A stretch of DNA of 64,000 nucleotides from Gammaproteobacteria bacterium (GCA_009692265.1 SHZM01000006.1:3080-67079); one strand, 5' to 3'; positions 7,152 through 48,283 are shown, numbered from the stretch's first letter. Program-made: numbers and translations. The notes: generated from the letters alone by a model not told the origin.

Positions 7152-7161
7152 AGGTTCTAAT

Positions 7162-30699: not shown

Positions 30700-30719
30700 T
30701 TCGCTAAAAAGGATACTGC

Positions 30720-32066: not shown

Positions 32067-32084
32067 AGGAGTCCACCACGCGCG

Positions 32085-32804: not shown

Positions 32805-33020
32805 TCAGCCTTCCCGCTCAAGCGCCTTACGCAGAGTATCCTTGCTGCGCAGGCGCGCGAGGTCTTCCTCGAATTCCCGGCTCTCGGCCCGCAGCTGCAG
32901 GATGTGCCAAACTATCCAGAAGGCACCGACCACGATGACCATCAGCATTTCGGTGCCGACGAACGGGTACATGGGGCCGATATCCGTCATCGCCCCGGCA
33001 AAGGATTCGATTGTCGCCAT
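32805..33020 (-). CDS. Small (71 aa) single-TM membrane protein immediately downstream of amt
   Basis: ATG is 23 nt after the amt stop. The sequence is 'MATIESFAGAMTDIGPMYPFVGTEMLMVIVVGAFWIVWHILQLRAE…'. Confidence 0.4.
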   Translation of the reverse strand: MATIESFAGAMTDIGPMYPFVGTEMLMVIVVGAFWIVWHILQLRAESREFEEDLARLRSKDTLRKALEREG

Positions 33021-33042
33021 GTCTGTTGTCTCCTGTATGAGT

Positions 33043-34452
33043 TTAACCGCGAGCCGCCAGCAGATCGCCAGCTTCTGCGTGTACCGATTGCGTGACTTCC
33101 GCAGCGTCGAGTTCGCGCTGAATCTCGATCGAGACATCGAGTCCAGCGAGTTCGATTTCGCGCGGGATGCGAAGCAGACCGAAGGCATTCAACACCTTGG
33201 CTGCCACATAGCCGGGGAACACGCCCAGCACTGCAAACATGATCACGGCACCGATGAAATTGCCCCAGGGGGTGATCGCGGCGAAGCCCGCGGTCGGCGA
33301 TGAGGGATAGCCCCACAGCACAAACCCGGCGACCACCACCCCCAGGAAGCCTGTATAACCATGCACGGCGACCGCGCCAACGGCGCTGTCGAGCTTGAAG
33401 CGCCGTTCCATGTAATAGTGCAGCTTGTAGGAAATAACCGGCACGGTCGCGCCGATCAGGAAGGCCTGCAGCGGGTGATACAGATCATTACCTGCGGACG
33501 CGGCGATCACCCCGGCGAGACCACCCGAGTAGGTCCAGAAAGCATCGCCCTTCGCCACCGCGTGCATCGAAAGCATGCCGCCGCATAAGGCCGTGATGAA
33601 ATTGAACGTGATAGCTGACAGTGTGGTCGGTGCCAGATAGATATTGGTCGCCGAGAAAAACACGCCATCGCCGGCCTGTACATCAAACATTGGGATGTTG
33701 CACGCGGCGTAGAAACCCCAGAAGCCGGTGTAGATCAGGAAAAGCCCGATCGTCACCAACCATGGATTGTGCGGATTGATGTTGCGGGCTGTCCCGTCCG
33801 GCTTGAATTTGCCGAGGCGCGGTCCGAGCACCAGCAGCACGCCCAAGGTAAAGCCGCCGGCGATGGCATGCACCACCCCGGATGCGTACGCATCGTGGTA
33901 GCCAAGCTTGGCCACCATCCAGCCCGCCGGATGCCAACCCCAGGCCGCATCGATTATCCACAGCACCGAACCAATCAGCACGGCCAGGATCCAGAAGGCA
34001 CCCGAGCGGATCCGTTCGATGCAGTCGCCAGAGACGATGGAGGCGGTGGTCCAGGAGAACAGCAGGAACGCCGCGAAAAACACCCCGTTGAGGCGGGCCC
34101 ACAGCGCAGTATCGGCAGCCGTCACCGCGGCTGTCGCTGGCGCGCCGCCCATGTGAGTGCCCATCAATTCGCTCCACGGGACCGCGAAGGATGCCGGGAT
34201 GAGTCCACCTGTGATCCCGGGTCCGTTCGGGAGCGCCGAATAGATCCACCAGCCGAACAGATAGAACGTGATCCCCACCGTCGGGATCACCATGGTGTTC
34301 TTCATCAACGTATGCATGTGATTCTTGCGCCGCGAGGCGCCGACTTCATACATGCAAAAGCCAACGTGGATCAGAAACATGAAAACCACTGTCACCCAGT
34401 AGTAAAACTCGGTGAACAGTACGGTCAGTGCTGTGATGTCTTTATCCATCAT
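33043..34452 (-). CDS. amt: Ammonium transporter (Amt/MEP family)
   Basis: ~470 aa polytopic protein with Amt family features. Start 'ggagga-N5-ATGATGGAT' at 34452. It lies co-directionally downstream of DMFase-like cassette A. Confidence 0.9.
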   Translation of the reverse strand: MMDKDITALTVLFTEFYYWVTVVFMFLIHVGFCMYEVGASRRKNHMHTLMKNTMVIPTVGITFYLFGWWIYSALPNGPGITGGLIPASFAVPWSELMGTHMGGAPATAAVTAADTALWARLNGVFFAAFLLFSWTTASIVSGDCIERIRSGAFWILAVLIGSVLWIIDAAWGWHPAGWMVAKLGYHDAYASGVVHAIAGGFTLGVLLVLGPRLGKFKPDGTARNINPHNPWLVTIGLFLIYTGFWGFYAACNIPMFDVQAGDGVFFSATNIYLAPTTLSAITFNFITALCGGMLSMHAVAKGDAFWTYSGGLAGVIAASAGNDLYHPLQAFLIGATVPVISYKLHYYMERRFKLDSAVGAVAVHGYTGFLGVVVAGFVLWGYPSSPTAGFAAITPWGNFIGAVIMFAVLGVFPGYVAAKVLNAFGLLRIPREIELAGLDVSIEIQRELDAAEVTQSVHAEAGDLLAARG

Positions 34453-34624
34453 ATCCTCCTCGGTTGTTTTACTCAGGCACGCGCCTGTCCCCCATACGCC
34501 GGCGACACCTTGGGTCGCCGACACCTGTTTAGACCAGCGATCCTGCGACTCCATTCCAGCCGGCGCGCTGCGCGTGACCGACCCCGGGTTTTCCCTGGGT
34601 GGCGGCTGCGGTCAGGTGCGCCGC

Positions 34625-35020
34625 TCAGAGACTGCGGACAGGCATCCTTTCCCCCCGCGTGCGCCGCAAGCGCGTGGCGGCGCGGCTGGCGGCGGCTGGC
34701 GTGTCGAACGTCAGTGCTTCAAATATGATCAACGGGCGCGCGCGATCCGCGCTTAATTGGCCGACGCACCAGCGCCGCTCCGTTTCGGTACAGACCACCA
34801 CATACGCGCCTGGTAGCGGGCCGAAGTGCCGGTTATTGAGCGTAAAAAGACACTCCGCGAGTTGATTGAGTTTGTCCGGATCGAGCGTGCCGAGTAATGC
34901 AGACTCGAGTTTATTCGGGGTGCCCGCGAGCGCGGGCATCACATGTTTGCCGCGCGGTGGCGCGAGAGGCCGCCCCGGGTTCTGCTGCGGCGCCGGTTTT
35001 CGCGCGCGACGCGGACTCAC
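34625..35020 (-). CDS. Protein of unknown function (~131 aa), DMFase-cassette-associated, copy A
   Basis: GTG start overlaps the large-subunit stop (GTGA at 35017-35020). It is a paralog of 42499..42927 (shared 'GP.PG.YVvV…R..VGQL.AD.A.P…FE.L.F'). Confidence 0.6.
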   Translation of the reverse strand: MSPRRARKPAPQQNPGRPLAPPRGKHVMPALAGTPNKLESALLGTLDPDKLNQLAECLFTLNNRHFGPLPGAYVVVCTETERRWCVGQLSADRARPLIIFEALTFDTPAAASRAATRLRRTRGERMPVRSL

Positions 35021-37401
35021 GGCAATGGTCCTTTCTTGAGAAAGCCCTTGATCACGTTCTTCATCAGGCGCGACACGTTGTTGTCGTAATTGTGGTGGGA
35101 CAGTGCGCCACACCAGGCCAGCGAGCCGGGCGCGAAGACCGCCCCGTCATTCGGCGTCTTGTAGTAGATCATGTCCGCCCGAATCATCGGATTCTCATCG
35201 CCGCCGCCGTAAAAACCGCGCACCGAGAAGTGGACTTCCTCGTTGACCTGCAGCATGAGATCCGTATGGCCTTCGGAGCGCGCGAGAAGGAACGCGTGGT
35301 GCGGCGTGCCGAATTCCAGATCGTAGCGGTCGATCTCCAGGCCCGCGGCGCCGCCGCCGACGAGGCCGAAGTCACCGATCACCTCGTCCTGACCGATCCC
35401 TTGAAACATCCACGCGCATTCGGGCCGCAGGCTATCCGCTTCGCGCCGATAGTAAGTGGAAACATCGAAACCATAACCGGTGAACGTGAGTCCGCAGACT
35501 TTGCTCGGGATGCGACCGCGCGCCCGCCACATTCCGCCGTACTTGCCGTCAAATGCATTGTTGTATTCGCCCGGATTCGCGGTCCACGCGCGGGTACCGG
35601 CCTCGCCTTTGCGTACTTCGATGATATTGCTGTTGTCCGGATGGTACTGGCTGCACCAGTAAAAGCCGTTGGCACCGAGGTACATCCAGCGCCCGCCGCT
35701 GGCCTGGTAAGCCTCGTAGGCATTGAGCATGCGTTCGGAAGAGTACTCCGGATGGCTGCCCGTCAAGACCACCTGATAACGGGACAACAGCCCGAGTCCC
35801 TCGCGATCGAGATCCTCATCGGTATGCACATCGAACTCGAAATTCATCTGTTCGAGCCAATCGGTCAAATGCAGATCCGCGTTAAACTGCCATAACGACG
35901 GCGACAACCAGTGCCGATACTTCGGGCGCATGTTCAAGATCGGTCGCAGGCGCGAGCTGTAGCACACCCCACTGCCGTCCGAATGGCAGGAATAAGTGGA
36001 CAGACCGTATTCGCGATGCTCATTCAGATAGAGATCCGAAGCGTTCATGATCGGCACGCGCCCGGCCAGTAGCTGCGCGACGACGGAATTGGTGGCAAGG
36101 TTGTCGTTCGAATAGGCCATGTAGCTGTTGGTCGGCACGATGAACGCAATCTTCGCGGTCGCCGTCCCGCGCGGCGGCCGCACGAAGAACGGAATGTAGT
36201 CTTCGGTTTCCGGCGAATCCTTGCCACCGATCCGCAGGCGAGCCGCATAGGCCCCACTCTTCAAGGTGGTGGGCAAGGTATAGGTAAAATCCACTGCCCA
36301 CCGCGCATCGTCGAGGTCATCGTCATGGAAATGGATCGCGCCATACTCATGCGGAATGTGGTGATAGACGATATCGTCGCCGCTCCAGTTATAGCCGGTC
36401 ATGCCGCGGACCGGGAGATTGATGGCGAACCCATGCAACTGATTCGGTGAGATATCCACGATCTGGCACGAGGCGATATTAGTCGTGATGTTGGCGTGAA
36501 AATCCCAGGCACCCACCACGGCAATGCGCAGCTCCGCAGCGGCTCCCGCGAAGCCGCGCGCGAGCGCATCGATTTCTGCTTTCGAAAGTGCTCTATTCGA
36601 AATCCTGGGACGGTCGATTTTCCCGTTATAACACCAGACCTGTTCCGGCAGGGACACCGCGGAGATGGCCTCCTTGTAGTGACCCCCTTGAATGCTGCGT
36701 CCCGAGTCCGTCTCCGCGGTCGCCGCGGCGAACAGGACCGGCGCGTCATTCTTGGCCGGACCATGGGCGCTCTTGGTCTTTACCACTGCGCTAGTCTCGT
36801 GCGCAGGGTGCAGCAGCGCCATGCCGAGTCCGCCATTCGTCGATGACACGATCGGTTCCTGATACAGCACCACCTGCCCGGTGTCCGCGTCGTAGCTGGC
36901 CGCCACCAGGTACCATACCTTACGACGCAATGGTTTCCCGCTCGTGAGCGTGGTGAGCTTGCCGCGCGTCCCGCCGATCATCACAGTAAGACAACCCGCT
37001 TCATCAACAAACAGACCATAGCCGGACTTCCGGCCGACATCCCACTTGGTCACTACGCCCTGCATGCCTTTGTCATGGCAGTAGCCATGCGGTCCGGGGC
37101 CTGGGGTGGTGGGGAAAATAAAGGCCTGCACGGTGAAGCTTGCACAGTCCAGGCGTGAGTCGGCCGGTATCACTACATACGAGCCACCGTGAATCTTCTG
37201 CGGTCGCCCTTGGTAGCGTTGATTGCAGGGCGCTTTGATTTCTTTTTCCTTGAAACCAGGTCCTTCGGGATTCGTATCCCCATGGATTACACGCACGATC
37301 TGGACGTCGTAGCGCTCTCCCTTCTCGGCATTCACATAGAATTTGATCGTCTCGCCAGGACATGCGGAATACTTATCGCTGTAGCCGGTGATCCGAAGCA
37401 T
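35017..37401 (-). CDS. N,N-dimethylformamidase large (beta) subunit family protein, copy A
   Basis: 794 aa. It has the LamG-like central region and the conserved C-terminal catalytic region '…GGRWMYLGANGFYWCSQYHPD…YGGMWRARGR…' typical of DmfA2-family proteins. Preceded by a 'gagga' SD. Confidence 0.85.
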   Translation of the reverse strand: MLRITGYSDKYSACPGETIKFYVNAEKGERYDVQIVRVIHGDTNPEGPGFKEKEIKAPCNQRYQGRPQKIHGGSYVVIPADSRLDCASFTVQAFIFPTTPGPGPHGYCHDKGMQGVVTKWDVGRKSGYGLFVDEAGCLTVMIGGTRGKLTTLTSGKPLRRKVWYLVAASYDADTGQVVLYQEPIVSSTNGGLGMALLHPAHETSAVVKTKSAHGPAKNDAPVLFAAATAETDSGRSIQGGHYKEAISAVSLPEQVWCYNGKIDRPRISNRALSKAEIDALARGFAGAAAELRIAVVGAWDFHANITTNIASCQIVDISPNQLHGFAINLPVRGMTGYNWSGDDIVYHHIPHEYGAIHFHDDDLDDARWAVDFTYTLPTTLKSGAYAARLRIGGKDSPETEDYIPFFVRPPRGTATAKIAFIVPTNSYMAYSNDNLATNSVVAQLLAGRVPIMNASDLYLNEHREYGLSTYSCHSDGSGVCYSSRLRPILNMRPKYRHWLSPSLWQFNADLHLTDWLEQMNFEFDVHTDEDLDREGLGLLSRYQVVLTGSHPEYSSERMLNAYEAYQASGGRWMYLGANGFYWCSQYHPDNSNIIEVRKGEAGTRAWTANPGEYNNAFDGKYGGMWRARGRIPSKVCGLTFTGYGFDVSTYYRREADSLRPECAWMFQGIGQDEVIGDFGLVGGGAAGLEIDRYDLEFGTPHHAFLLARSEGHTDLMLQVNEEVHFSVRGFYGGGDENPMIRADMIYYKTPNDGAVFAPGSLAWCGALSHHNYDNNVSRLMKNVIKGFLKKGPLP

Positions 37402-37472
37402 GGGGTTGTCCTCATTTATGTACCGTCGACGCCGCGCGCCAGAAATGTTCGGTTCGGTGCCAACGCGGCCGT

Positions 37473-37922
37473 TCAGCGCACTTTATGCCCGTAACTGGCC
37501 AGGAGTTCGTGCACCCGTTTGACGAAAATCGCGTGCTCACAGGAATCTTCGGATGGATAGGAGTCGGCGAAGATCTTGACCGGCTTGCCGCGCACGCCAG
37601 TACACATGCCAATGCGGTAATCGCGATGCGCGGCGACACAGATTCGCACGTACTTGCCGGCCATCGGCGCACGCCGGAGTTTGTCGATCACATGCGCAAG
37701 TTCTTCACTGTGCTGCACACCGGCCTTGCCACCTTTGCCCGGCAAGCCGATCGGGTTCTCGCAATGTTCAGCGAGCAGGCGCTCGCGCGTCGTGCGGTCG
37801 GTCAGCAGCGGGAGGACATGGGTGCGGGTAATGAAGTCATCCGTACTGGTATAACCCTGGTTGGTTTGGACGCCGGTCGGTTTGGTCGCCATCGTTCCTC
37901 CCAGGCTTTTTGACTCGTGCAA
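37473..37922 (-). CDS. Putative DMFase small (alpha) subunit-like protein, copy A
   Basis: ~140-149 aa gene directly upstream of the large subunit. It is a paralog of 45352..45783 (shared 'IDKLR…', 'EHAIFVKR'). The size matches the ~15 kDa DMFase alpha subunit. The assignment is by context. Confidence 0.55.
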   Translation of the reverse strand: MHESKSLGGTMATKPTGVQTNQGYTSTDDFITRTHVLPLLTDRTTRERLLAEHCENPIGLPGKGGKAGVQHSEELAHVIDKLRRAPMAGKYVRICVAAHRDYRIGMCTGVRGKPVKIFADSYPSEDSCEHAIFVKRVHELLASYGHKVR

Positions 37923-37993
37923 TACTTATAACACTGGCGTCCGGCAAAATGAAGGTTAGTTCTTTCAATGCGCAGAAACTTTCTCTACTCTCA
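37893..37993. promoter_or_regulatory. Divergent intergenic/promoter region between DMFase-like cassette A (minus) and the GS-like operon (plus)
   Basis: ~100 bp, locally AT-richer ('cttataacactggcgtccggcaaaatgaaggttagttctttcaatgcgcagaaactttctctactctcaatgcaacgt'). It is flanked by divergent start codons. Confidence 0.45.
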
Positions 37994-39364
37994 ATGCAAC
38001 GTATGAATACGACCCCGCTAAACTGGTCTGCCGCTTCGGGTACCGCGCTTAGCGACATTTTGGAGCGCGAGCGCATCGAGTTTGTGCACGCGGGGATCTT
38101 CGATACTGAAGGAGTGTTCCGCGAAAAGCGGTTGCCGGTGGCGCTGGCGCGCCGGTACCTGGCGGAGGGTTGGTCTTTCATCGACGCGCTGCCGTACTGG
38201 GGGCCCAACGACACGGTACGCGCGGACCGCGCTTATCGCAGCGAAGCCTGCCAGCTTGATGTCGCGAGTCTGCGCCCTTACCCGTTCGAACCTCACGCCG
38301 CGTTGCTGGTGGCGGACTACACCGGCGACAGCGCCGCGTTGTCGCCGCGGGCACTGCTCGCGGCCCAGATCGCGCGCGCGCACCAACTTGGCTTCGAACC
38401 CCTTGGCGCAAGCGAGTTCGAGTTCATCATTCTCGACGAAACGCCCGCTACGCTGAGCGCCAAGAATTTCGATCAGCTGCAGACGCTGGCACAGGAGAAT
38501 TGTTGCTGGTCGGGGCTATATCCGGCCGCGGGCGCAGAATTCCTGCGCGATTACGATCACTGTCTGCGGGCCGGGGATATTCCCCTGCATCATCTGTGCT
38601 CGGAACTGGGCCCGGGGTGCCTGGAAGCCGCGCTGCCCGTGCGCCAACTGGCGACGGCGGCGGACGATGCCGCACTTTTCAAGCTGTTCACCAAGGCGTT
38701 CTGCATTCAACGCAGTCTCACCGCTTCTTTCATGGCCCAGCTCTCGGATACGCATCCCGGACTGGGCGGGCATCCCAGCTTGTCGCTGCGCACGCGCACG
38801 ACTGACGTCGCCGCGTTCCATGCGGCCGACGATCCGCGCGGAATCTCGATCGTGTGCCGGCAATTTATCGCGGGCATCCTGCAAGCCTTGCCCGAACTCA
38901 TGCCGATGTTCGCCAGTACGGTGAATGCTTATCGCCGGTATGTGCCGGGCAATTGGGCGCCACGCACCGCGACCTGGGGGCTCGGGAATTACACCTGTGG
39001 TTTACGGGTGGTGGCTGGCGCGCCGGACGACTGTCGGATTGAATTTCGCTTGCCCGGCGCGGATACCAATCCGCACCTGGCCTTCGCGCTGATGCTCGGC
39101 GCCGGGTTGCGGGGAATCGAGCAAAATCTGCAACCCCCGCCTGAAACGACCGACATCGGCCGCGAGTTCGTGCATCCGGCGATCGGTCCGTTACCGCGCT
39201 CGCTGCTCGAAGCCGCCGAACGCATGCAGCGTAGTACGCTGGCGGCTGATTTGTTTGGGGCCGAGTTCGTGACCCATTTCACCCAGAGCTGTATTCAGGA
39301 AGACATCACAATGCGCCGGCACGTCGCGGCATTTGAACGCAAGCGTTACCTTCATCACGTATGA
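37994..39364 (+). CDS. Glutamine synthetase-like protein 1 (divergent GlnA-family paralog)
   Basis: It has the GS catalytic-domain layout ('GASEFEFII', 'NAYRRYVPGNWAPRTATWGLGNYTCGLRV'). The canonical HHE.APGQ.E region is replaced by 'HHLCSELGPGCLE'. Confidence 0.75.
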   Translation: MQRMNTTPLNWSAASGTALSDILERERIEFVHAGIFDTEGVFREKRLPVALARRYLAEGWSFIDALPYWGPNDTVRADRAYRSEACQLDVASLRPYPFEPHAALLVADYTGDSAALSPRALLAAQIARAHQLGFEPLGASEFEFIILDETPATLSAKNFDQLQTLAQENCCWSGLYPAAGAEFLRDYDHCLRAGDIPLHHLCSELGPGCLEAALPVRQLATAADDAALFKLFTKAFCIQRSLTASFMAQLSDTHPGLGGHPSLSLRTRTTDVAAFHAADDPRGISIVCRQFIAGILQALPELMPMFASTVNAYRRYVPGNWAPRTATWGLGNYTCGLRVVAGAPDDCRIEFRLPGADTNPHLAFALMLGAGLRGIEQNLQPPPETTDIGREFVHPAIGPLPRSLLEAAERMQRSTLAADLFGAEFVTHFTQSCIQEDITMRRHVAAFERKRYLHHV

Positions 39365-39405
39365 GCGTGGCGCTTTAAACCATCAGCACCCGGAGGAGCC
39401 TTGCT

Positions 39406-40872
39406 ATGACCGCATTGGAGAATTACGTCAAAGACACTGCGCGCGCGGAAGGCGTCAAGAAAGTCCGCGCGATGATCAAAGCGCTGGGCGTCGAGTACAT
39501 CTACTTCCAGTTCGTGTCGGTCACCGGGCGAATCGTCGGTAAGGGTGCGCCTGCCGATCACTGGGAGCGAATCGCCACTAAGGGCTTCCAGCTGGTCTAT
39601 GGTTCGACCGCCAATCTGTTCATCAGTCGCAAAGGGCGTTACCTCGGCTACGGGCCGGAGGCCCATGAGCTGGTCGGCATCGCAGATCCGGAAACGTTTG
39701 TGCAGTTGCCGTGGGAACCGCGCGTGGCGCGGGTGTTCTGCACCTTATTCCGCAATCGCGAAGAGCTGGTCGACCCCGGCGGCTATCTGAGCTCGGATTG
39801 CCGCGGCAATCTCACACGCGCCCATACCGCGTTCGAAAAAAAGCACGGCCTGCGGCTGCGGCTCGGCACCGAACCCGAAATGATGTGGTTGAAAAAGGGT
39901 GCCGACGGCAAACCCGCTGGCGGCGTCACCAAGCCTTATTGTTACCACATCGATCAGTTCGAAGAACTGCGACCGATCACGCTCAAGGTGACCGAGTACT
40001 GTCGCAAGATGGGTATTGACTGCATTCAGGGTGATCACGAAGACGCCCCCGGACAGCTCGAACTGAACTGGACGTACGACGATGTCGAGCGGACGTCCGA
40101 TCGGCTGACCACCTACCGTCAGATCTGCACGCAGGTGGCTCGCGAGTTCAACGTCATCGCGTGCTTCATGACCAAGCCTTTCATGAAAGTCTCGGCGAAC
40201 GGCTGTCACCATAATTTCTCGCTGTGGAAAGGCGGCAAGGACCAGGTGACTACCTTCGATGGCCTGTCGAAGTTCGGCATGTCCGAGGTGTTCACCTACG
40301 TCACGGGTGGCCAGAACAAATTCGATCCCGAAGGCAAGGATCTCCGCATGCCCGGGCCGATCGGCCAATGGGCCGCCGGCGGCATCGTTAAACACCTGCC
40401 AGCGCTGACTGCGCTCGGGGCGTCCACGGTGAACTCCTACCGGCGCCTGCTCGACCAGGGCTACTGGGCGCCCGTCTACAACAATTGGGGCTATCAGAAT
40501 CGGACCTGTGCGCTGCGCGTGTCCGCACCAGGGCGTTTCGAGTATCGTGCCGTCGATTCGATGGTCAATCCCTATTTGTTGAATGCAGCGTTGCTGGCGG
40601 TCATGGATGAAGGCATCAGCCAAAAGCTGGATCCCGGTCCGCTGGAGCAGCGCAATATCTACGAACTCGAACTCGCCGGGAAAAAAGTGGTGAAGCTGCC
40701 CACGAACCTCGGCATGGCGCTGGATGCGATGGAGGCCGATCCCTTGGTGCGCTCGGCGCTTCCGGGCGAGATGTGGGATGTGTTCATCGACTACAAACGT
40801 GATGAATGGGACAAATTTCTGGCGACGGTCACAGCCTGGGACCACGACACTTACATGGACTATCTGCCCTAG
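39406..40872 (+). CDS. Glutamine synthetase-like protein 2 (gamma-glutamyl-amine ligase type, GmaS/PuuA/IpuC-like)
   Basis: 'GDHEDAPGQLELNW', 'NSYRRLLDQGYWAPVYNNWGYQNRTCALRV' and 'EPEMMW' are canonical GS catalytic motifs. 488 aa. Confidence 0.85.
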   Translation: MTALENYVKDTARAEGVKKVRAMIKALGVEYIYFQFVSVTGRIVGKGAPADHWERIATKGFQLVYGSTANLFISRKGRYLGYGPEAHELVGIADPETFVQLPWEPRVARVFCTLFRNREELVDPGGYLSSDCRGNLTRAHTAFEKKHGLRLRLGTEPEMMWLKKGADGKPAGGVTKPYCYHIDQFEELRPITLKVTEYCRKMGIDCIQGDHEDAPGQLELNWTYDDVERTSDRLTTYRQICTQVAREFNVIACFMTKPFMKVSANGCHHNFSLWKGGKDQVTTFDGLSKFGMSEVFTYVTGGQNKFDPEGKDLRMPGPIGQWAAGGIVKHLPALTALGASTVNSYRRLLDQGYWAPVYNNWGYQNRTCALRVSAPGRFEYRAVDSMVNPYLLNAALLAVMDEGISQKLDPGPLEQRNIYELELAGKKVVKLPTNLGMALDAMEADPLVRSALPGEMWDVFIDYKRDEWDKFLATVTAWDHDTYMDYLP

Positions 40873-40887
40873 CCCGGAGCAAACATC

Positions 40888-41772
40888 ATGCGGGACTTCA
40901 GCCTTAGCGACGGACAGGTTACTGACTTCGAACGGGATGGCTTCATCACCGTCGATCGCATCATCGATGACGACGAAGTGGCACTCCTGCGTGCGCGCTA
41001 TGACGAGTTGTTCAAAGGTCACTGGGAAACCGGCCTGGTGCCCGACGAAGTAAACTGGCTGGAAGGACGCGATCCCCCCGATCACACCCGTCAAATCTGC
41101 AATGGCTGGAAATCCGATCGGTTTGTGGCGAGCGTCATCCTGCAGGAATCGATCGGCCGGGCCTGCGCTACGCTCGGCCGTTGGCCCGGGACCCGCATCA
41201 GCCAGGACAACATTCTGTGGAAGCCGCCAGGCGGCAAACCGTTAGGGTTCCATCAAGATTCTGCCTACGAACAATGGACGAACCTGCCGGACTGGGTGAG
41301 CTGCTGGATTGCGCTCGATGACACCAGCGCCGAAGGTGGCACGGTTGAGTATGTGCGGGGATCGCACCGCTGGGGCCAGTCCGGCATGATCGAGCAGTTT
41401 CATGCGCCGCAGAACCCGGTCAAAGACCTCGAAAAAGCCGCCGCTGCGGCGGGGGTTACGCAGATCGAGCGGGTGCCGATCGTCGTCAAAGCCGGCGGCG
41501 GCGCGTTTCATGGCGGCTGGACCTGGCACGGCTCGGACGTCAACCGCTGCGAGGTCCCGCGCCGTTCGATCGTGGCCCATTGCATGTCCTCCGAAACCCG
41601 CTTTCATCCGACCTATGTCGGCTATATCTACAGCCGGTACAAACGTTTCGGCGATGACACCATGGATGAAGCCTTTTTCCCAATTCTGTGGCGCCAGGAT
41701 GGCTACCGCTCACCGTTCATTGCACCCTACGCCGCACGGCACATTACCTGGGGCGAAGCGCTGCCGGCGTGA
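40888..41772 (+). CDS. Phytanoyl-CoA dioxygenase (PhyH) family Fe(II)/2-oxoglutarate dioxygenase
   Basis: 'WKPPGGKPLGFHQDSAYEQW' (HxD) and 'GGAFHGGWTWHGS' (distal His) form the PhyH fold. The stop overlaps the next gene's GTG. Confidence 0.85.
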   Translation: MRDFSLSDGQVTDFERDGFITVDRIIDDDEVALLRARYDELFKGHWETGLVPDEVNWLEGRDPPDHTRQICNGWKSDRFVASVILQESIGRACATLGRWPGTRISQDNILWKPPGGKPLGFHQDSAYEQWTNLPDWVSCWIALDDTSAEGGTVEYVRGSHRWGQSGMIEQFHAPQNPVKDLEKAAAAAGVTQIERVPIVVKAGGGAFHGGWTWHGSDVNRCEVPRRSIVAHCMSSETRFHPTYVGYIYSRYKRFGDDTMDEAFFPILWRQDGYRSPFIAPYAARHITWGEALPA

Positions 41773-42482
41773 GGCGCCGGCTCGGCCTGCTGGCCTGCGA
41801 CAGCATCTGGGAACCCCTGCGTTCCCGTTTTGGCGATTACGCCGAGATGTACACCGCGCTGCTCCAGGCGGCCGGTGCCGACTTCGAACTCAAGGTTTTT
41901 GCGGTTCATCGAGGCGTGCTGCCGGCGCATCCGAGGGACTGCGATGCGTGGCTGATCTCCGGCTCGCGCGCCGGGGTGTATGACGCCCAACCCTGGATCG
42001 CGACCTTGCAGAATTTCGCACGTGCGGCGCATGCGATCGAGGTCCCCCAGGTCGGGATCTGTTTCGGTCATCAGTTGCTGGCACAGGCTCTCGGTGGCCG
42101 CGTCGAACGCGCGGCCACCGGCTGGGGTCTCGGCAATCTTGAGGTCGAACTGCGCGGCGAGTCGGCGTACCCGGCACCGACGTCCGGTCCGCTCCGGTTG
42201 TTCATGGCGCATCAAGATCAGGTTGTGACCCTGCCACCCGACGCGCAGTGGCTGGCCGCGGCGGCGCATTGCCGCCACGCTGCGTTCGCGCTGGGTGAGC
42301 AGGTGCTGGGCGTCCAGGCGCATCCCGAGTTCACGGCTGACTTCATGCGGGAGATGACCCTCGAAGCGACGTTCGAAATCCCGCCCGCCGTGCGCGCCGC
42401 GGCGCTCAGCAGTTTTGCTAAGCCGGTCGACAGCGCCGTTATCGGGCGCTGGATCGCCACTTTTCTGGGGCTGCTCAGCTGA
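41769..42482 (+). CDS. Class I glutamine amidotransferase-like protein (gamma-glutamyl-amide hydrolase type, PuuD/IpuF-like)
   Basis: 'VGICFGHQLLAQALGG' holds the catalytic Cys and 'VQAHPEF' the His. GTG start gives a GTGA overlap with PhyH. Confidence 0.75.
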   Translation: MRRRLGLLACDSIWEPLRSRFGDYAEMYTALLQAAGADFELKVFAVHRGVLPAHPRDCDAWLISGSRAGVYDAQPWIATLQNFARAAHAIEVPQVGICFGHQLLAQALGGRVERAATGWGLGNLEVELRGESAYPAPTSGPLRLFMAHQDQVVTLPPDAQWLAAAAHCRHAAFALGEQVLGVQAHPEFTADFMREMTLEATFEIPPAVRAAALSSFAKPVDSAVIGRWIATFLGLLS

Positions 42483-42498
42483 GTTCGGGCACCGGCGG

Positions 42499-42927
42499 TT
42501 AGCGGCAGCTGAGCTGCGCCGCCGCGCGGAGTTCTGTCGCCTTGGCGCGCGCCTTCGCTTCGCTCGCGAACACCAGATCCTCGAACAACTGCACCGGCGC
42601 GGCCGGATCCGCACACAGTTGCCCGACCGCATAACGCCCGGATGCCACTGCGACAATCACATAAAAGCCGCGCACCGGGCCGGGTCGCGCACCGTTGAGG
42701 CGATACAGCACTTTGGCAAGATCGGCGAAGTGGCTGTCATCTTCGACCACCGCCTCGACGCGTGTCGGCGGCGCATCGGAGCGCACCCAGCGATGCGGCA
42801 TTTCTCCGGCGTCGCTGGTGAGCGGTAGTGCTTGCTCGCCGCGATAGGCCGGATGCAGCCACCAGGTCTCATCGCGTTTCAGCGGGACTTCGGCGGCCGC
42901 TTTGACTTTCGAGCGGCGGGGGTTCAC
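42499..42927 (-). CDS. Protein of unknown function (142 aa), DMFase-cassette-associated, copy B
   Basis: ATG overlaps the large-subunit stop (ATGA). Paralog of 34625..35020. Confidence 0.6.
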   Translation of the reverse strand: MNPRRSKVKAAAEVPLKRDETWWLHPAYRGEQALPLTSDAGEMPHRWVRSDAPPTRVEAVVEDDSHFADLAKVLYRLNGARPGPVRGFYVIVAVASGRYAVGQLCADPAAPVQLFEDLVFASEAKARAKATELRAAAQLSCR

Positions 42928-45368
42928 GGCAGAGGACCGTTCTTCAGGAAGCCATCAAGCGTATTGCGCATCAACCGCGACACGTTGTTGTCGTAGCGAT
43001 TGTGCGACAGCGAGCCGCACCAGGCCATCGAGCCGACCGAAAACACCGCGCCGTCATTCGGGGTCTTGTAGTAGACGATGTCCGCACGGGTGCGCGGATT
43101 GTTGTCCCCCGTGCCGCCGGCGATATACCCGCGCGCGTTAAAAGTTGACTCTTCGGTGACCGAGACGAACATGTCGGAATGACCTTCTGAATTTGCGAGC
43201 AAATAGGCGCGATGCGGCGTGCCCAGTTCCAGATCGTAGCGATCGAGTTCGAGCCCGGCCGCGCCATCCCCGACCAGGCCGAAGTTCCCGATCGGCTCGT
43301 CACGCGCAATGCCTTTGAACATCCACTTGCATTCGGGCAGTTCGCTGTCCGGCGCCCGGCGGTAGTACGAGGAGTAAGTCAAGCCGAACGACGTGAACGT
43401 GACGCCGAGAATCTTGCTCATGACCCTGCCGCGTACCCGCCACAGGCCACCATGCTTGCCGTCGAACGCATTGCAGTATTCGCCGGGCGCGATGGTCCAG
43501 GCACGGGTCCCGTTGTCGCCTTTGCGCACTTCGACAATGTTCGGGTTCTCCGGGTGGGGCTGACAGATCCAGTAAAAGCCGTTCGCGGCGAGATACATGA
43601 AGCGGCCGCCGGCCTGCTGGTAATCGTGATACGCCTGCATCTGCTGCTCGGACACATACTCCGGATGATGGCCGGTCAGCACGATGCGGTACTGGTTCAA
43701 CAGCGCTACGCCTTCACGCTGCACGTCTTCGTCGGTCAGGATGTCCAAGTCGTAATTCATCTCGTGCAGCCAGTCGACCAGATGCAGATCCGCATTGAAC
43801 TGCCAGAGCGACGGCGACAACACATGCACGTATTTGGGACGCATATTCAGAATCGGGCGCAGCCTGGACGAAATATTCACGCCCCAGCCGTCGCGGTAGG
43901 ACGTATAAGTGCCAAGCCCGTAACCGCGCTCTTGGTTCAGCAGCAGATCACCCGGCTGCAGCAGCGGCACCTGGCCCGTCAGCAGTTGCGCGATCACGGA
44001 ATTCACGCTCAAGTTATCGTTCGCATAGGCGAGGTAGCTGTGCATCGCCATCACGAGCGCGATTTTCGCGGTCGGGCCGCTGGCCGGCGGGCGCACGAAG
44101 AACGGGACATAATCCTCGTACTCAGCGCTGGTGGAGCCATTCACACGCAAGCGCGCGGCATACACCCCGCTTTTGAGATTGGCCGGAACTTTGAACGTGA
44201 ACGACGGCGCCCAGCGCGCGTCGTCGACCGACTCATCGTGAAAATGAATCGCGCCATATTCTTGCGGGGCGTGACGGAAGCTCATGTAGTCGGAAGACCA
44301 GTTGCAGCCGGTGACCCCGCGCACCGGCAGATTGACGCCGACGCCGTGCAGATGGTTCGGGCCCGTATCCACGATGTGCGTCGAGGCCGCGTTATCCGCG
44401 ATGTTCGCGCTGAAATCCCAGGCCCCGACCACTGCGCCGCGCAGTTCGCCGGGGATGTTTTCACAACCGGCTGACGCCAGCAGCATTTCCACCTCGGCCG
44501 CGCTGAGCGCGCGATTCGCGAGCTTAGGGCGTTCGATCTTGCCGTTGTATTTCTGGGTGTGGACCGGGATCTCCCACGGCATCGGGAGATGCTTGAAGTG
44601 GCCACCATGCAGCGTGCGCCCGGAGTGGGTCTCCAGCGTGCTGGCTGCAACCAACAGCGGACAATCGCTCGTACGCGGGCCGGCGCTGCGGGTGCGATAA
44701 CACGCGCTCCCGGCGGTGTCGTCGAGCGGGTGCAGCATGCTGAGGCCATGGCCACCATTCGTGATCGTCACGAACGGGGTCTGCCACACGCGAATCTCGC
44801 CGCTTGCCGCATCAAACGTGGCCGCCACCTTGTACCAGACCTTGCGAAACAGCGGTTTGCGGGTCGCGTATTCTTCAACCTTGCCGCGGCCGCGCCCGAT
44901 GCGGAGCGCCAGTTCACCACTTTCGTTGATGAACAGGCCATAGCCGACGCCCGTGGACGTGTTGAATTTAGAGATAATCGCCTGCGCGCCCACCGCCACA
45001 CCCTCGGTATCGACCAGCGGCGTGGTGGGATAGACGTAGGCGCACAAAGTGAAACTCTGCACGTCGAGCCGTGCATCGTGCGGCACCATGACATAGCTGC
45101 CGGCATACACCGCCTGATGCTGACCGCGATAGCGGCGATTAGTAGCGCTGCGGACCAGTTTTTCCTTGAATCCCGGCCCCTCCGGGTTCGTATCTCCGTG
45201 AATCAACCGCACGATGTCGGCCTGATACGGTTCGTCGAACTCGCTGTGCACGTGGAAAGTGACTTCTTCGCCCGGGCGGACCGAACACCGATCGGTGTAG
45301 CCGGTCACGCGCAGCATCATTGGTTGGGTGTTTGCCATGCGGATCAGCCTTTCAGGATTCGATGCCAT
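42924..45368 (-). CDS. N,N-dimethylformamidase large (beta) subunit family protein, copy B
   Basis: ~800 aa and collinear with copy A throughout ('MLRVTGYTDRCSVRPGEE…', '…GGRFMYLAANGFYWICQPHPEN…'). The start is likely the internal ATG at 45338 or 45320. Confidence 0.85.
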   Translation of the reverse strand: MASNPERLIRMANTQPMMLRVTGYTDRCSVRPGEEVTFHVHSEFDEPYQADIVRLIHGDTNPEGPGFKEKLVRSATNRRYRGQHQAVYAGSYVMVPHDARLDVQSFTLCAYVYPTTPLVDTEGVAVGAQAIISKFNTSTGVGYGLFINESGELALRIGRGRGKVEEYATRKPLFRKVWYKVAATFDAASGEIRVWQTPFVTITNGGHGLSMLHPLDDTAGSACYRTRSAGPRTSDCPLLVAASTLETHSGRTLHGGHFKHLPMPWEIPVHTQKYNGKIERPKLANRALSAAEVEMLLASAGCENIPGELRGAVVGAWDFSANIADNAASTHIVDTGPNHLHGVGVNLPVRGVTGCNWSSDYMSFRHAPQEYGAIHFHDESVDDARWAPSFTFKVPANLKSGVYAARLRVNGSTSAEYEDYVPFFVRPPASGPTAKIALVMAMHSYLAYANDNLSVNSVIAQLLTGQVPLLQPGDLLLNQERGYGLGTYTSYRDGWGVNISSRLRPILNMRPKYVHVLSPSLWQFNADLHLVDWLHEMNYDLDILTDEDVQREGVALLNQYRIVLTGHHPEYVSEQQMQAYHDYQQAGGRFMYLAANGFYWICQPHPENPNIVEVRKGDNGTRAWTIAPGEYCNAFDGKHGGLWRVRGRVMSKILGVTFTSFGLTYSSYYRRAPDSELPECKWMFKGIARDEPIGNFGLVGDGAAGLELDRYDLELGTPHRAYLLANSEGHSDMFVSVTEESTFNARGYIAGGTGDNNPRTRADIVYYKTPNDGAVFSVGSMAWCGSLSHNRYDNNVSRLMRNTLDGFLKNGPLP

Positions 45369-45783
45369 ATTGGTCGAGCAACGCCTTGAGGCGTTTCAAA
45401 AAAATCGCGTGTTCGGCGTCCTCCCGCGAGCGATAGCGTTCCTTGGTGATCTTCACCACGCCGCCACGTCGCCCCGGCAGGATCCCGATCGCGTATTCCT
45501 GCCATGGCACGGTTTCGACAATGGTGTGCTTGCCGGCCTGGGGCGTCATCCGCAACTTGTCGATCAGATGTTTCAGTTCCGGGCTGTGATTGGGGGGTTT
45601 AACGCCCGGCTGTGCCGCCGCGCCGCGTGGATGCGTCCGATGTTCGGCGATGATGCGCGCGCGACTCGCCGGATCCCGCAGGTGCGGCAGGATGTACATT
45701 CGGTTGTCGTAGTCGTCGACTGCGGTGAATCCGTAGTCACGGGCCAACGCAGTGGTCGGACCTGGATGACGTCTGGTGGCCAT
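45352..45783 (-). CDS. Putative DMFase small (alpha) subunit-like protein, copy B
   Basis: 143 aa. Paralog of 37473..37922. It lies directly upstream of large subunit B. Confidence 0.55.
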   Translation of the reverse strand: MATRRHPGPTTALARDYGFTAVDDYDNRMYILPHLRDPASRARIIAEHRTHPRGAAAQPGVKPPNHSPELKHLIDKLRMTPQAGKHTIVETVPWQEYAIGILPGRRGGVVKITKERYRSREDAEHAIFLKRLKALLDQYGIES

Positions 45784-46178
45784 AGTTTACCTCTGAGATG
45801 CGTGACGCAAAGGCGCGCGACGGATGCGTGATGAGCTACTGATCGTGTCACAGTCCTGCGGACTTCGACAAGGTTGGTGCCGTTCGCGACGGACCCCGCG
45901 CGCCGCGCCATAGGGCCATGCGGCCAAGTTTTCTGAAAGAGACTCGGCCCCTGCTAAGCTCACACGCTTTGTCAGCGAACCGTGCTGAATCATCTAGCAA
46001 TACTGGGCATGTCAGAAATTTTGTGTGAGCCGTTGTTAATAATTAATCAGTTAAAGTGAATCGTTCGCCGAACTGGATCGCGACTTGGATTCACGCCCTT
46101 TGTTCAGACTCATACCCCATTGGACAAGGCTCCCTATCGACGCTCGCTTAATTTTGAGACCGGCTCTAATCTTCCGTC

Positions 46179-47153: not shown

Positions 47154-47225
47154 CGGGCATATCAAGAGTACGCGCTTTATCATGTCCGCCGCACTCACAG
47201 ATCCCGTAACGATGGAGACAAACCC

Positions 47226-48011: not shown

Positions 48012-48283
48012 AGCGCCGACTTATATCGGACAATCGCACTGAAATTTGCCGCCACAAAGAAGGCTTGCGGGTCGGTACTCCCAGCGATGAGACCAAGAAT
48101 TTGCGTGGTCGCCGAGAAGTCGCGCGCAAGCGCACGATAAAGCGCGATTACACTTGAATCTGCTGTCGAAATTTTGCCGTCTGGATAATCATGTCGTAAA
48201 ACGGAATAAAACTCTTATCGCGTGCGACATGCCCTTCCTCTATCTGCTGTAACAGCGGACGTTCCCCTCGTAATATCTTCGCT

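Follow-up and report, generated by a model that had tools for sequence, protein, structure and literature searches.

A conserved operon joining two glutamine-synthetase-like genes to a PhyH-family dioxygenase: a candidate gamma-glutamylation route for methylated amines

Which metabolic task is served by an operon in which two glutamine-synthetase-like (GS-like) genes precede genes for a PhyH-family dioxygenase and a class-I glutamine-amidotransferase-like hydrolase (GATase)? The question is raised by a gammaproteobacterial locus that we analysed within a 64-kb stretch of DNA, hereafter the window. The four genes occupy the + strand at 37994-42482, in the order GS-like 1 (GS1), GS-like 2 (GS2), PhyH and GATase, exactly where an initial annotation had placed them (Table 1). 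The intergenic gaps measure 41 bp (GS1/GS2) and 15 bp (GS2/PhyH), with GGAG-type ribosome-binding sites, and the sequence directly confirms the GTGA that the same annotation reported, in which the stop of PhyH overlaps the start of the GATase. The GS1 open reading frame opens at TTG 37910, and the lengths of its orthologues (453-457 aa) favour the ATG at 37994 as the start; for the GATase, the GTG start agrees with the NCBIfam PRK05665 model at the N-terminus (residues 3-233 on 3-233). In Acidimicrobiales the four-gene set recurs in the reordered form GS2-GATase-GS1-PhyH. A chance grouping is dismissed because the identical gene set recurs in other phyla, and we conclude that the operon is real and conserved.

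Table 1. Features of the operon and of its flanks, with coordinates in the window.
Feature	Coordinates	Strand	Characteristics
71-aa membrane protein pairing with Amt	32805..33020	-	GP[IML]YPFVG motif
Amt-family transporter	33043..34554	-	PF00909 1.3e-49
Second small alpha'-like ORF, 3' of beta 1, start codon uncertain	34625..34939	-	42% identical over 73 aa to 42499-42927
DMFase large (beta)-subunit-like amidohydrolase 1	35017..37401	-	794 aa; DMFA2_C 2.5e-94 + Laminin_G_3
DMFase small (alpha)-subunit-like, unit 1	37473..37892	-	78% identical to L004 gene 6592-7011 (PF26354 DMF_alpha)
GS-like 1 (GS1)	37994..39364	+	456 aa; Gln-synt_C 1.7e-69
GS-like 2 (GS2)	39406..40872	+	488 aa; Gln-synt_C 4.9e-76
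PhyH-family Fe(II)/2-oxoglutarate dioxygenase	40888..41772	+	294 aa; PF05721 4e-22
Class-I glutamine-amidotransferase-like hydrolase (GATase)	41769..42482	+	237 aa; PF00117 1.3e-15
alpha'-like small ORF, DMFase unit 2	42499..42927	-	69% identical to L004 syntenic gene 327-749
DMFase large-subunit-like amidohydrolase 2	42924..45368	-	814 aa; DMFA2_C 8.4e-88
DMFase alpha-like small subunit, unit 2	45352..45783	-	42% identical to 37473-37892

The active site of GS2 suggests that the protein is probably a GmaS-type glutamate-alkylamine ligase, that is, a gamma-glutamylmethylamide synthetase. Its best PDB matches are 9qur, 'Glutamate--methylamine ligase' (197 bits), and 7cql, RhGmaS (165 bits). The catalytic residues of RhGmaS are Asp177, Glu186 and Arg312, its MMA pocket is lined by Tyr147, Gln175, Glu179 and Asn188, Trp300 takes the place of the flap Glu, and Asp50' is absent (PMC7948447). 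Specifically, Y180, Q208, D210, E212, E219 and N221 of GS2 correspond to RhGmaS Y147, Q175, D177, E179, E186 and N188, and W222, Y224, W354, R366 and R371 to W189, Y191, W300, R312 and R317; residue numbers in the 7cql chain are shifted by a 20-residue tag, with D210, E219 and R366 aligning to chain residues 197, 206 and 332. All the catalytic and methylamine-site residues of the crystallised GmaS that were mapped are kept in GS2, Lys30' not being mappable, and GS2 combines the flap Trp (W354) with a Tyr (Y65) at the position of the ammonium-site Asp50', as in GmaS, which is devoid of Asp50'. GS2 scores 302 bits on the curated GmaS model TIGR03105, under the cutoff of 469.6, in two stretches, the match being split by an insertion at about residues 295-318. 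It carries an extra segment of about 25 residues relative to GmaS and shows 28-30% identity to the canonical GmaS encoded beside MgdABCD in locus L091; in sequence terms, it represents a distinct 488-aa family. Elsewhere, GS2 orthologues are found where gmaS would be expected, with MgsABC-like genes, Tdm, Tmm and Amt as neighbours. MgsABC-like neighbours accompany 28 of the 42 PhyH-linked GS2 orthologues and are also present in loci L088 and L090, while none is found by the window GS2.

GS1 is a divergent member of the glutamine synthetase family (best PDB match 5dm3, 150 bits), in which the metal-ligand motifs SEFEF, ELGPGCLE, GGHP and RIEFR are retained. Family-wide, Asp177 and Asn188 (RhGmaS numbering) are replaced by C202 and A213, and the phosphate-binding Arg339 (RhGmaS Arg312) was not found: its position is taken by Tyr (Y333) in 16/16 orthologues examined and also in loci L086, L091 and L092. 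Because this Arg serves in GmaS and GS to polarise the gamma-phosphate of ATP, GS1 may be inactive or no independent ligase; its role may be that of a second ligase or of a partner subunit. Both GS-like proteins remain under every NCBIfam equivalog cutoff, GS1 and GS2 reaching 140 and 229 bits on the GlnA model TIGR00653 (cutoff 429) and 130 and 196 bits on the PuuA model NF045547 (cutoff 650). In addition, the flap Glu327 is changed to Trp in both (GNWAP, GYWAP). These scores and the flap substitution bear out the original view that the pair is something other than housekeeping GlnA.

PhyH scores 80 bits on PF05721, against a gathering cutoff of 22, and the facial triad (H122-x-D124, H214) as well as the 2OG-binding R225 is invariant in 17 orthologues. 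Its AF2 model (pLDDT 78) was assigned the PhyH fold by Foldseek, and among the top fold matches is MysH, a PhyH-fold enzyme that carries out N-dealkylation. PhyH did not reach the EctD (ectoine hydroxylase) equivalog (35 bits versus 336.5) or the PhnY* (methylphosphonate hydroxylase) equivalog (27 bits versus 500). It belongs to a tight orthogroup (54-95% identity) with members in Gamma- and Alphaproteobacteria, Acidimicrobiales, Mycobacterium and Cyanobacteria. Oxidation of an amide N-methyl group needs hydrogen-atom abstraction, as carried out by P450 or Fe/2OG enzymes, and not a flavin amine oxidase; we propose that PhyH is an N-alkyl (N-methyl) hydroxylase/demethylase.

The GATase scores 58 bits on PF00117 (cutoff 22.8) and 179 bits on PRK05665, under the cutoff of that model, and its triad is present as Cys98 (GICFGHQ) and His185-x-Glu187 (AHPEF). 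Its initial assignment to the PuuD/IpuF type needs a slight correction: the protein is of the GuaA-N-terminal/gamma-glutamyl-peptidase type, with 3m3p (Methylobacillus) and 9k7i, gamma-glutamyl peptidase 1, as best PDB matches, and PF07722 (Peptidase_C26, the PuuD family) gave no match in the window GATase and only a weak one in its Acidimicrobiales counterpart. By analogy, we propose a gamma-glutamyl-amide/glutamine hydrolase. The gene is absent from two close relatives of the locus (L006 and L008).

The amidases and the amt gene described at this locus are also real. The operon is flanked by two complete units (DMFA2_C 1e-88 or better) that are predicted to encode DMFase-type amidohydrolases, with the DMFA2_C domain, the Tyr/Tyr/Glu set and small subunit genes all present. 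Large subunit 1 gives 626 bits to the solved DMFase large subunit 6lvb_A and conserves the Tyr/Tyr/Glu positions (SYMAYSN, GLSTYS, SHPEY) that presumably are the Fe ligands of 6lvb DMFase (Y399, Y440, E521); large subunit 2 shares these positions and 59% identity with it. Another solved relative of the large subunit, at 442 bits, is N-acetyl-beta-phenylalanine acylase. The alpha-like protein of unit 1 matches 6lvb_B weakly. The alpha'-like slot of unit 1 is also filled in L004 and L008, and the alpha'-like ORF of unit 2 clusters with 6 other loci, its L004 counterpart likewise sitting after a large subunit. DmfA1A2, the N,N-dimethylformamidase of Paracoccus and Methylobacterium (6lvb), hydrolyses DMF to dimethylamine and formate. 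The flanks resemble it in large subunit, Tyr/Tyr/Glu set and adjacent small-subunit-like genes, and differ from it in having two paralogous units, each with two small ORFs (alpha, alpha'). Translation of Amt likely begins at the ATG at 34452, and the sequence of the transporter suggests that (methyl)ammonium is probably the substrate. It is 65-69% identical to the Amt genes of the GS2/MgsABC loci L088 and L090, where small ORFs after Amt have the motif of the 71-aa protein.

The gene neighbourhood was surveyed in 80 species-representative genomes with PhyH orthologues. A GS-like gene lies at most 10 kb from PhyH in 46/80 genomes and at most 3 kb away in 40/80; at 34/80 PhyH loci there is none within 10 kb, which counts against the reading that we prefer. 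GS2 is found within 10 kb in 42 of the 80, GS1 in 23, each time accompanied by GS2, a class-I GATase in 20 (16 with GS1) and an MgsC-like gene in 31. PhyH adjoins four different GS-like subfamilies, and its neighbours elsewhere include Tmm (782 bits to solved Tmm), Tdm, a TmoX-like transporter, Gfa, and GcvT/DmmD-like and DMGDH-like proteins. The Tmm, Tdm, Gfa and NMG-synthase-like genes near PhyH, together with the GmaS active site of GS2, support the link to methylamine metabolism suggested at the outset. In the minimal cyanobacterial loci (Tdm-Amt-PhyH-SBP-GS2), PhyH is the sole candidate for processing the GS2 product, because no Mgs genes are nearby. In about 28 loci, PhyH and GS2 occur together with complete MgsABC-like and DAO genes, so that a gamma-glutamylmethylamide demethylase would be partly redundant there, unless its true substrate is the dimethyl amide. 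The window GS2 shares its active site with the GmaS of the N-methylglutamate pathway (GmaS, MgsABC, MgdABCD), whereas PhyH, GS1 and GATase are absent from the described pathway. The 64-kb window has neither MgsABC nor Mgd genes. The initial annotation had PhyH acting instead of NMG synthase, but NMG-synthase-like genes accompany PhyH and GS2 in most other genomes, and PhyH is therefore not a simple replacement for that pathway.

The most informative result of the analysis is a P450 counterpart operon, GS1-GS2-P450-GATase-Amt-small ORF, present in loci L091 and L092 of marine/methylotroph Alphaproteobacteria; a GS1-GntR-GS2-P450 arrangement occurs in Methyloligella. Compared with the window, the P450-type loci show 50% identity for GS1 and 63-65% for GS2, and their P450s are 68-75% identical to one another. 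This operon is the window operon with a P450 in the PhyH position, a non-orthologous displacement that gives the Ipu architecture. The isopropylamine (Ipu) pathway of Pseudomonas sp. KIE171 comprises a GS-like ligase (IpuC), a P450 (IpuD) and a GATase-like hydrolase (IpuF); as in the window, one operon combines genes for a ligase, a C-H hydroxylase (predicted in the window) and a class-I GATase-like hydrolase. Besides L091 and L092, locus L086 is a relative of the window operon in which a P450 occupies the position of the hydroxylase. The gamma-glutamylation-pathway architecture initially proposed is supported by this GS1-GS2-X-GATase-Amt order mirroring IpuC/IpuD/IpuF, a likeness of gene architecture. 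Unlike Ipu, the window has a PhyH Fe/2OG dioxygenase that needs no ferredoxin partner, two GS-like genes and a methylated-amine context, and its hydroxylation is predicted at the N-attached carbon, leading to dealkylation and not to a stable amino alcohol. The Puu (putrescine) and Tdn/Atd (aniline) systems share the succession of gamma-glutamylation, oxidation and de-glutamylation, and Acidimicrobiales versions of the window operon carry a PuuR-like XRE-cupin regulator; the window oxidant is, however, neither a DAO-type oxidase nor a Rieske dioxygenase, and its GATase lacks the Peptidase_C26 match.

The pathway that we favour, with about even chances of being correct, starts with gamma-glutamylation of an amine, probably mono- or dimethylamine; hydroxylation of the N-methyl carbon by PhyH would then free formaldehyde, and the resulting product would be hydrolysed by the GATase. 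Judging from homology and context, the two DMFase-type amidohydrolases (alpha-beta-alpha' each) would free di- or monomethylamine from N-substituted formamides/amides, and the Amt/71-aa protein pair would import methylammonium. GS2 would then ligate the amine to the glutamate gamma-carboxyl with ATP, possibly as a hetero-oligomer with GS1, or GS1 might take the bulkier dimethylamine. With Fe(II), 2-oxoglutarate and O2, PhyH would hydroxylate the N-methyl carbon of the gamma-glutamyl-N-methylamide, and the carbinolamide would shed formaldehyde, converting N5,N5-dimethylglutamine to N5-methylglutamine and then to glutamine. Finally, by analogy with PuuD, IpuF and GGP1, the GATase-like hydrolase would cleave the gamma-glutamyl product (glutamine or carbinolamide) to glutamate and ammonia. 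Counting against this pathway, no GS-like enzyme is known to us to accept dimethylamine, and no Amt protein is known to carry it. No formaldehyde-handling gene was found in the 64-kb window, and the missing Arg of GS1, the partial redundancy with MgsABC-like and DAO genes and the absence of the GATase gene from L006 and L008 also weigh against it.

The main rival, unlikely in our judgement, has PhyH act on free dimethylamine (or trimethylamine) as a 2OG-dependent stand-in for DmmABC, demethylation yielding monomethylamine and formaldehyde and GS2 trapping the monomethylamine, with GS1 and GATase in separate accessory roles. PhyH occupies the dmm position in some Tmm/Tdm/GmaS loci and would, like DmmDABC (dimethylamine monooxygenase), free formaldehyde from an N-methyl group; it differs in its unrelated family, in depending on 2OG where DmmDABC uses NADPH and haem, and in that it may act on a gamma-glutamyl amide instead of free dimethylamine. 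In loci L067 and L054, Tmm and Tdm are neighbours of PhyH, with GS2, MgsABC-like and DAO genes in the same loci, and these genes cover the way from trimethylamine to glutamate except for the step from dimethylamine to monomethylamine. In L058 and L059, PhyH and a GcvT (DmmD-like) gene are divergently oriented, and DMFase, whose product is dimethylamine, adjoins PhyH in 8/80 loci, of which three have no GS-like gene in the vicinity. Also in favour, dmmDABC is missing from many tmm/tdm/gmaS-positive bacteria (PMC5520151), and a GntR regulator adjoining PhyH resembles TmoR, a DMA-responsive GntR regulator (PMC13390433). However, under this explanation gamma-glutamylmethylamide would have no further use in the window clade or the cyanobacterial loci, where no Mgs genes are nearby, and it accounts neither for the fixed GS1-GS2-X-GATase order around PhyH or P450, as in Ipu, nor for the unrelated GS-like subfamilies that neighbour PhyH in Mycobacterium and Bradyrhizobium/Paraburkholderia. 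Moreover, free amines of two carbons are not known to us as substrates of any PhyH-type enzyme.

More doubtful still is an Ipu-like route acting on a non-methyl alkylamine (ethylamine, isopropylamine or ethanolamine), in which PhyH would hydroxylate a carbon off the nitrogen and the GATase would release an amino alcohol, with no aldehyde and glutamine formed. The architecture is identical to IpuC/IpuD (P450)/IpuF, and ethylamine is accepted by GmaS-type enzymes. Mycobacterial PhyH loci (PucR regulator, GS-like gene, permease) resemble GlnA4-type ethanolamine loci (compared from PMC6529630). Against this, the operon has neither an alcohol nor an aldehyde dehydrogenase to process the amino alcohol, an Amt-type transporter suggests a very small amine, and the context is consistently one of methylated amines and C1 units (Tmm, Tdm, MgsABC-like, Gfa, GcvT, DMFase).

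We consider it very improbable that PhyH acts on amides by oxidative N-demethylation (DMF to N-methylformamide to formamide), with the GS-like proteins only assimilating the freed ammonia or amine. Such demethylation is the long-postulated second DMF pathway, for which, to our knowledge, no enzymes have been identified, and in several lineages PhyH has amidases of the DMFase-like, amidase-signature and creatininase-family kinds as neighbours; yet most PhyH loci have GS2 and no amidase, the P450-type operons have no amidase either, and the 55-86% identity of PhyH between hosts whose amidases differ widely points to one shared substrate. Ordinary nitrogen assimilation by two glutamine synthetase isoforms and a glutaminase beside an unrelated hydroxylase would suit the GS catalytic domain and metal ligands of both GS-like proteins, and is hardly credible given scores far under the GlnA, GlnT and PuuA equivalog cutoffs, the replacement of both the ammonium-site Asp50' and the flap Glu327, and GS synteny with PhyH or P450 kept across phyla.

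The literature searched yielded no description of a gamma-glutamyl-amide route with PhyH, or of PhyH on free dimethylamine, in keeping with the earlier claim that such a route had not been described for amine assimilation. Overall, the initial interpretation of the locus finds support in part. In conclusion, following by analogy the logic of 'gamma-glutamyl-protected oxidation' of the puu, ipu and tdn pathways, the operon and its flanks may constitute a module that uses methylated amines/N-methyl amides as a source of nitrogen (and C1), a proposal that we hold to be evenly balanced between right and wrong; from its sequence, it appears to represent an undescribed bacterial route for obtaining nitrogen from methylated amines.

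The initial annotation had proposed an operon of four genes at 37994–42482, and our profile search of the window recovered all of them, in one direction and each with a Pfam domain match: two glutamine-synthetase-family proteins, GS-like 1 (GS1) and GS-like 2 (GS2), an Fe(II)/2-oxoglutarate (2OG) dioxygenase of the PhyH family (hereafter PhyH) and a class-I glutamine-amidotransferase-like protein (GATase). Specifically, the GS1–GS2 and GS2–PhyH gaps measure 41 and 15 bp, each holding a GGAG-type ribosome-binding site, and the overlap noted earlier is present in the sequence, the PhyH stop codon and the GATase GTG start sharing GTGA. In the NCBIfam PRK05665 model, the N-terminus falls on this GTG start, and the GS1 start at ATG 37994 is backed by orthologue lengths of 453–457 aa. 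An Rfam scan of 30000–48500 at E ≤ 0.1 gave no match; a sigma-70 and terminator scan of the divergent intergenic region and a sigma-54 consensus search returned nothing above chance.

Features of the operon, its surroundings and the GS1-family members compared (window positions unless a locus is named)
Feature	Coordinates	Strand	Length	Match or remark
GS-like 1	37994–39364	+	456 aa	Gln-synt_C 1.7e-69
GS1-family member	L086:7260–8591			
GS1-family member	L091:8001–9329			
GS1-family member	L092:8001–9311			
GS-like 2	39406–40872	+	488 aa	Gln-synt_C 4.9e-76
PhyH-family dioxygenase	40888–41772	+	294 aa	PF05721 4e-22
Class-I GATase	41769–42482	+	237 aa	PF00117 1.3e-15
DMFase large-subunit homologue, unit 1	35017–37401	-		DMFA2_C; 626 bits vs solved DMFase 6lvb
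DMFase large-subunit homologue, unit 2	42924–45368	-		DMFA2_C
Alpha-like small ORFs, upstream of large genes	37473–37892, 45352–45783			42% identical to each other
Alpha'-like small ORFs, downstream of large genes	34625–34939, 42499–42927			
Amt	33043–34554			downstream of unit 1
71-aa membrane protein	32805–33020		71 aa	downstream of unit 1, pairs with Amt
Hydantoinase/oxoprolinase A and B, then 'putative cyclase'	5133–10232			
Luciferase-like monooxygenases	867–2237, 3891–4964, 30720–32066			
Mutator-family transposase	18863–20086			PF00872, 2e-120
MOSC_N+MOSC protein	47226–48011			

The possibility that the GS-like proteins are housekeeping GlnA, raised in the initial annotation, found no support, as both fall below the NCBIfam cutoffs of GlnA, type III GS and PuuA. 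The best solved relatives of GS2 are the 'glutamate--methylamine ligase' 9qur (197 bits) and the Rhodovulum GmaS 7cql (165 bits). When aligned to the latter, with the numbering corrected for a 20-residue tag, GS2 keeps Tyr147, Gln175, Asp177, Glu179, Glu186, Asn188, Trp189, Tyr191, Arg312 and Arg317, as well as Trp300, where GS has the flap Glu, and carries Tyr, not Asp, at the Asp50' position; the residues kept are those to which the GmaS structure paper assigns a catalytic role or a place in the methylamine pocket (PMC7948447). In addition, GS2 orthologues hold the gmaS slot in two loci of relatives, L088 (Amt, DAO, GS2, MgsABC-like, Tdm, where Mgs is N-methylglutamate (NMG) synthase) and L090. 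GS2 represents a distinct 488-aa family with an insertion, only 28–30% identical to the canonical GmaS encoded beside the NMG dehydrogenase genes mgdABCD in locus L091.

GS1, in turn, is of the 5dm3 type by PDB comparison. In the family members compared, the metal ligands are all kept, and conserved Cys, Ala and Tyr occupy the positions of GmaS Asp177, Asn188 and Arg312, the last equivalent to the phosphate-binding Arg339 of GS. Since GS1 never occurs without GS2 among the loci examined, and its stop codon overlaps the GS2 start in L091 and L092 (translational coupling), GS1 may be a partner subunit and not an independent ligase, and the two proteins together may make up a hetero-oligomeric GS-like enzyme.

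As regards the other two proteins, H122, D124, H214 and R225 of PhyH are invariant in the orthologue alignment. PhyH has an AF2 model of pLDDT 78, and its Foldseek matches in the PDB are MysH, SnoK/SnoN, amino-acid hydroxylases and EctD, all of them generic PhyH-fold neighbours at 17–22% identity. These neighbours, including the N-dealkylating enzyme MysH, are consistent with a small amino-acid-like substrate without assigning one. The GATase contains the Cys98-His185-Glu187 triad; among solved structures it is closest to a Methylobacillus protein and the plant gamma-glutamyl peptidase 1, and the Pfam profile search gave no Peptidase_C26 match.

The flanking amidases, previously described as resembling N,N-dimethylformamidase (DMFase), were confirmed as such: both large genes encode DMFase large-subunit homologues (DMFA2_C 1e-88 or better), 59% identical to each other, in which the conserved Tyr, Tyr and Glu positions are presumably the DMFase iron ligands. 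Each is accompanied by an alpha-like and an alpha'-like small ORF, the latter distinct from alpha (about 36% identity over 53 aa). The small ORFs gave no Pfam match in the profile search of the window, and we identify them as DMFase small-subunit-like genes because the syntenic small genes of L004, the closest metagenome contig, carry a precomputed PF26354 DMF_alpha assignment. The three-gene units alpha/large/alpha' span 34625–37892 and 42499–45783 and are also found in L004, L008, L022 and L043. Given that DMFase as described contains a single small subunit, the two small ORFs per unit may reflect a differing subunit composition. The amt gene attributed to the locus is likewise there; its product is 65–69% identical to the Amt of the GS2/MgsABC-like loci L088 and L090, and the 71-aa membrane protein is motif-conserved with the small protein paired to Amt in those loci.

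Further from the operon, the hydantoinase/oxoprolinase A and B subunits, followed by the arylformamidase-type cyclase gene, and several luciferase-like monooxygenases hint at a catabolic island for amides and N-heterocycles in the wider region, within which lies an intact Mutator-family transposase. A MOSC_N+MOSC protein is encoded near the module and another beside Tdm in the cyanobacterial locus L089 (3136–3933); the two are only 24% identical, and no link was drawn from what may be coincidental.

The PhyH orthogroup is tight, with 120 of the best matches at least 60% identical and the entire group reduced to one representative by clustering at 50%. A genome scan returned at least 545 species-level relatives, from Gamma- and Alphaproteobacteria, Acidimicrobiales, Mycobacterium, Myxococcota and others. 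For the best 80 PhyH loci, ORFs within about 10 kb of PhyH were called and clustered, and the recurrent clusters annotated; the low-GC loci L012 and L013, for which the GC3-weighted caller does not work, were covered by tblastn. A GS2 orthologue was present in 42 of the 80 loci and a GS1 orthologue in 23, all 23 with GS2, while class-I GATases occurred in 20 (16 of them with GS1) and a GS-like gene of any kind stood within 3 kb of PhyH in 40. The split glutamate-synthase-like trio typical of NMG-synthase architecture (class-II GATase, GXGXG, FMN domain) was found in 31 loci, DAO-family oxidoreductases in 23, DMFase beta in eight, Tmm in five (representative: 782 bits against a solved bacterial Tmm), Gfa in three, and Tdm and a GcvT-only (DmmD-like) protein in two each. 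Acidimicrobiales loci are arranged as MgsA-MgsB-MgsC, DAO, XRE-cupin regulator, GS2, GATase, GS1, PhyH; the four-gene set of the window is thus kept across phyla in another order, which argues for a functional unit.

These comparisons also brought up other gene arrangements. Two conserved proteins without a Pfam family, one of 111–143 aa (65–77% identity across classes) and one of about 200 aa, follow MgsC in GS2-type loci (L085:2708–3121, L058:16957–17571, L088:14632–14967 and many others) and may belong to the DAO-type oxidoreductase as additional subunits. In Bradyrhizobium (L001:9802–17202) and Paraburkholderia dilworthii (L003:7758–17186), PhyH orthologues of 63–67% identity lie in a biosynthetic-looking cluster comprising an O-carbamoyltransferase, a 67-aa ORF, PhyH, an ATP-grasp ligase, a glycine-decarboxylase P-protein-like gene, a GS-like gene and an EamA exporter, for which a carbamoylated hydroxymethyl-amide product is conceivable. 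In the Mycobacterium MAGs L025, L034 and L065, PhyH adjoins a creatininase-family amidohydrolase, an amino-acid permease, a 523-aa GS-like protein and a PucR/GAF regulator, a layout recalling GlnA4-type ethanolamine loci. The closest genomes, L006, L010 (up to 95–98% protein identity) and L024, are MAGs labelled Klebsiella or Enterobacteriaceae; these labels look wrong, since in gene content and neighbours the genomes agree with uncultured environmental Gammaproteobacteria.

A look-up of relatives of GS1 and GS2 led to three loci with a P450 gene. L091 (CP051234.1, a 4.47-Mb genome) encodes MgsC, a canonical GmaS and MgdABCD-like proteins, followed by GS1-like, GS2-like, P450, GATase, Amt and a small ORF; L092 (a 1.7-Mb TARA scaffold, its GS1 protein indexed in 77 blocks) has the same run from GS1-like to the small ORF, then another GS-like gene and an FMO; and L086 (Methyloligella) has GS1-like, GntR, GS2-like and P450. 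Compared with the window proteins, their GS1 and GS2 are 50% and 63–65% identical, and the three P450s are 68–75% identical among themselves. A P450 and an SDR gene also follow the GATase in L004, on the opposite strand (11614–13621), this P450 being only 27–31% identical to those of the marine module. Because L091 and L092 have the order GS1-GS2-P450-GATase with related GS1 and GS2, we conclude that a conserved module exists with a C–H hydroxylase placed after the ligases and before the GATase, and that the window operon is its PhyH version. With a P450 as the hydroxylase, the architecture is that of the isopropylamine pathway, where the gamma-glutamyl amide is hydroxylated by a P450 (IpuD) and a GATase-like hydrolase (IpuF) takes off the glutamyl group, and this likeness is the strongest support for the oxygenase acting on the ligase product. 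For monomethylamine, L091 already possesses a canonical GmaS along with Mgs and Mgd, so that another amine may be what the module serves, dimethylamine (DMA) being the obvious candidate.

Judged from gene content and homology, the operon is probably a methylated-amine/amide module in which PhyH would demethylate nitrogen oxidatively and release formaldehyde; gamma-glutamyl-N-methylamide as its specific substrate is about as likely as not. The reading given in the initial annotation is supported in part. A tblastn search of the 64-kb window found no MgsABC-like, DAO, u137 or u204 proteins, its clade is without Mgs genes in 64 kb, and the cyanobacterial L087 and L089 hold Tdm, Amt, PhyH, a binding protein and GS2 with no Mgs genes nearby, so that PhyH is the sole candidate for processing the GS2 product. 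Also counted for action on a ligase product is the position of PhyH beside unrelated GS-like subfamilies in Mycobacterium and in Bradyrhizobium/Paraburkholderia. Free DMA is a less likely substrate; in its favour, PhyH occurs in L067 and L054 with Tmm and Tdm in loci otherwise covering all steps except DMA to monomethylamine, L058 and L059 have a DmmD-like GcvT gene running divergently from PhyH, and dmmDABC is missing in many bacteria having tmm, tdm and gmaS (PMC5520151). N-methylglutamate demethylation by PhyH was dropped, as minimal loci are without NMG synthase.

The evidence for a ligase product and that for free DMA would be reconciled if DMA were gamma-glutamylated, which requires a ligase accepting it, and then demethylated to gamma-glutamylmethylamide, which would enter the NMG route or be demethylated again to glutamine. 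Tentatively, GS1-GS2-(PhyH or P450)-GATase(-Amt), acting on DMA via N5,N5-dimethylglutamine, could be the missing DMA route of tmm/tdm/gmaS bacteria without dmmDABC: a GS1/GS2 hetero-oligomer would gamma-glutamylate DMA, demethylation would occur as N5,N5-dimethylglutamine, and the product would feed into glutamine or the NMG pathway.

In a full-text literature search we found no description of PhyH or P450 partnering GS-like ligases in methylamine/DMA metabolism, and a 2026 paper on the regulation of trimethylamine clusters limits its list to Tmm, Tdm, Dmm, GmaS, Mgs and Mgd. The proposed route would fall within gamma-glutamylation-dependent amine catabolism. Methylated amines are a major dissolved organic nitrogen pool and aerosol precursors. 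The DMA-removal step is missing from many genomes having the rest of the pathway (PMC5520151), and the cross-phylum module of GmaS-type ligases and a C–H hydroxylase (PhyH in the window, P450 in marine Alphaproteobacteria) offers a specific, testable candidate for this gap. If it were indeed the missing DMA route, the 'DMA bottleneck' described for marine bacteria would be resolved and a new reaction class, a 2OG- or P450-dependent N5-methylglutamine demethylase, would be defined; the amine pathways that work by gamma-glutamylation would gain an Fe/2OG enzyme, DMFase homologues from organisms other than industrial DMF degraders would be given a functional context, and surveys of methylamine cycling would gain new marker genes.
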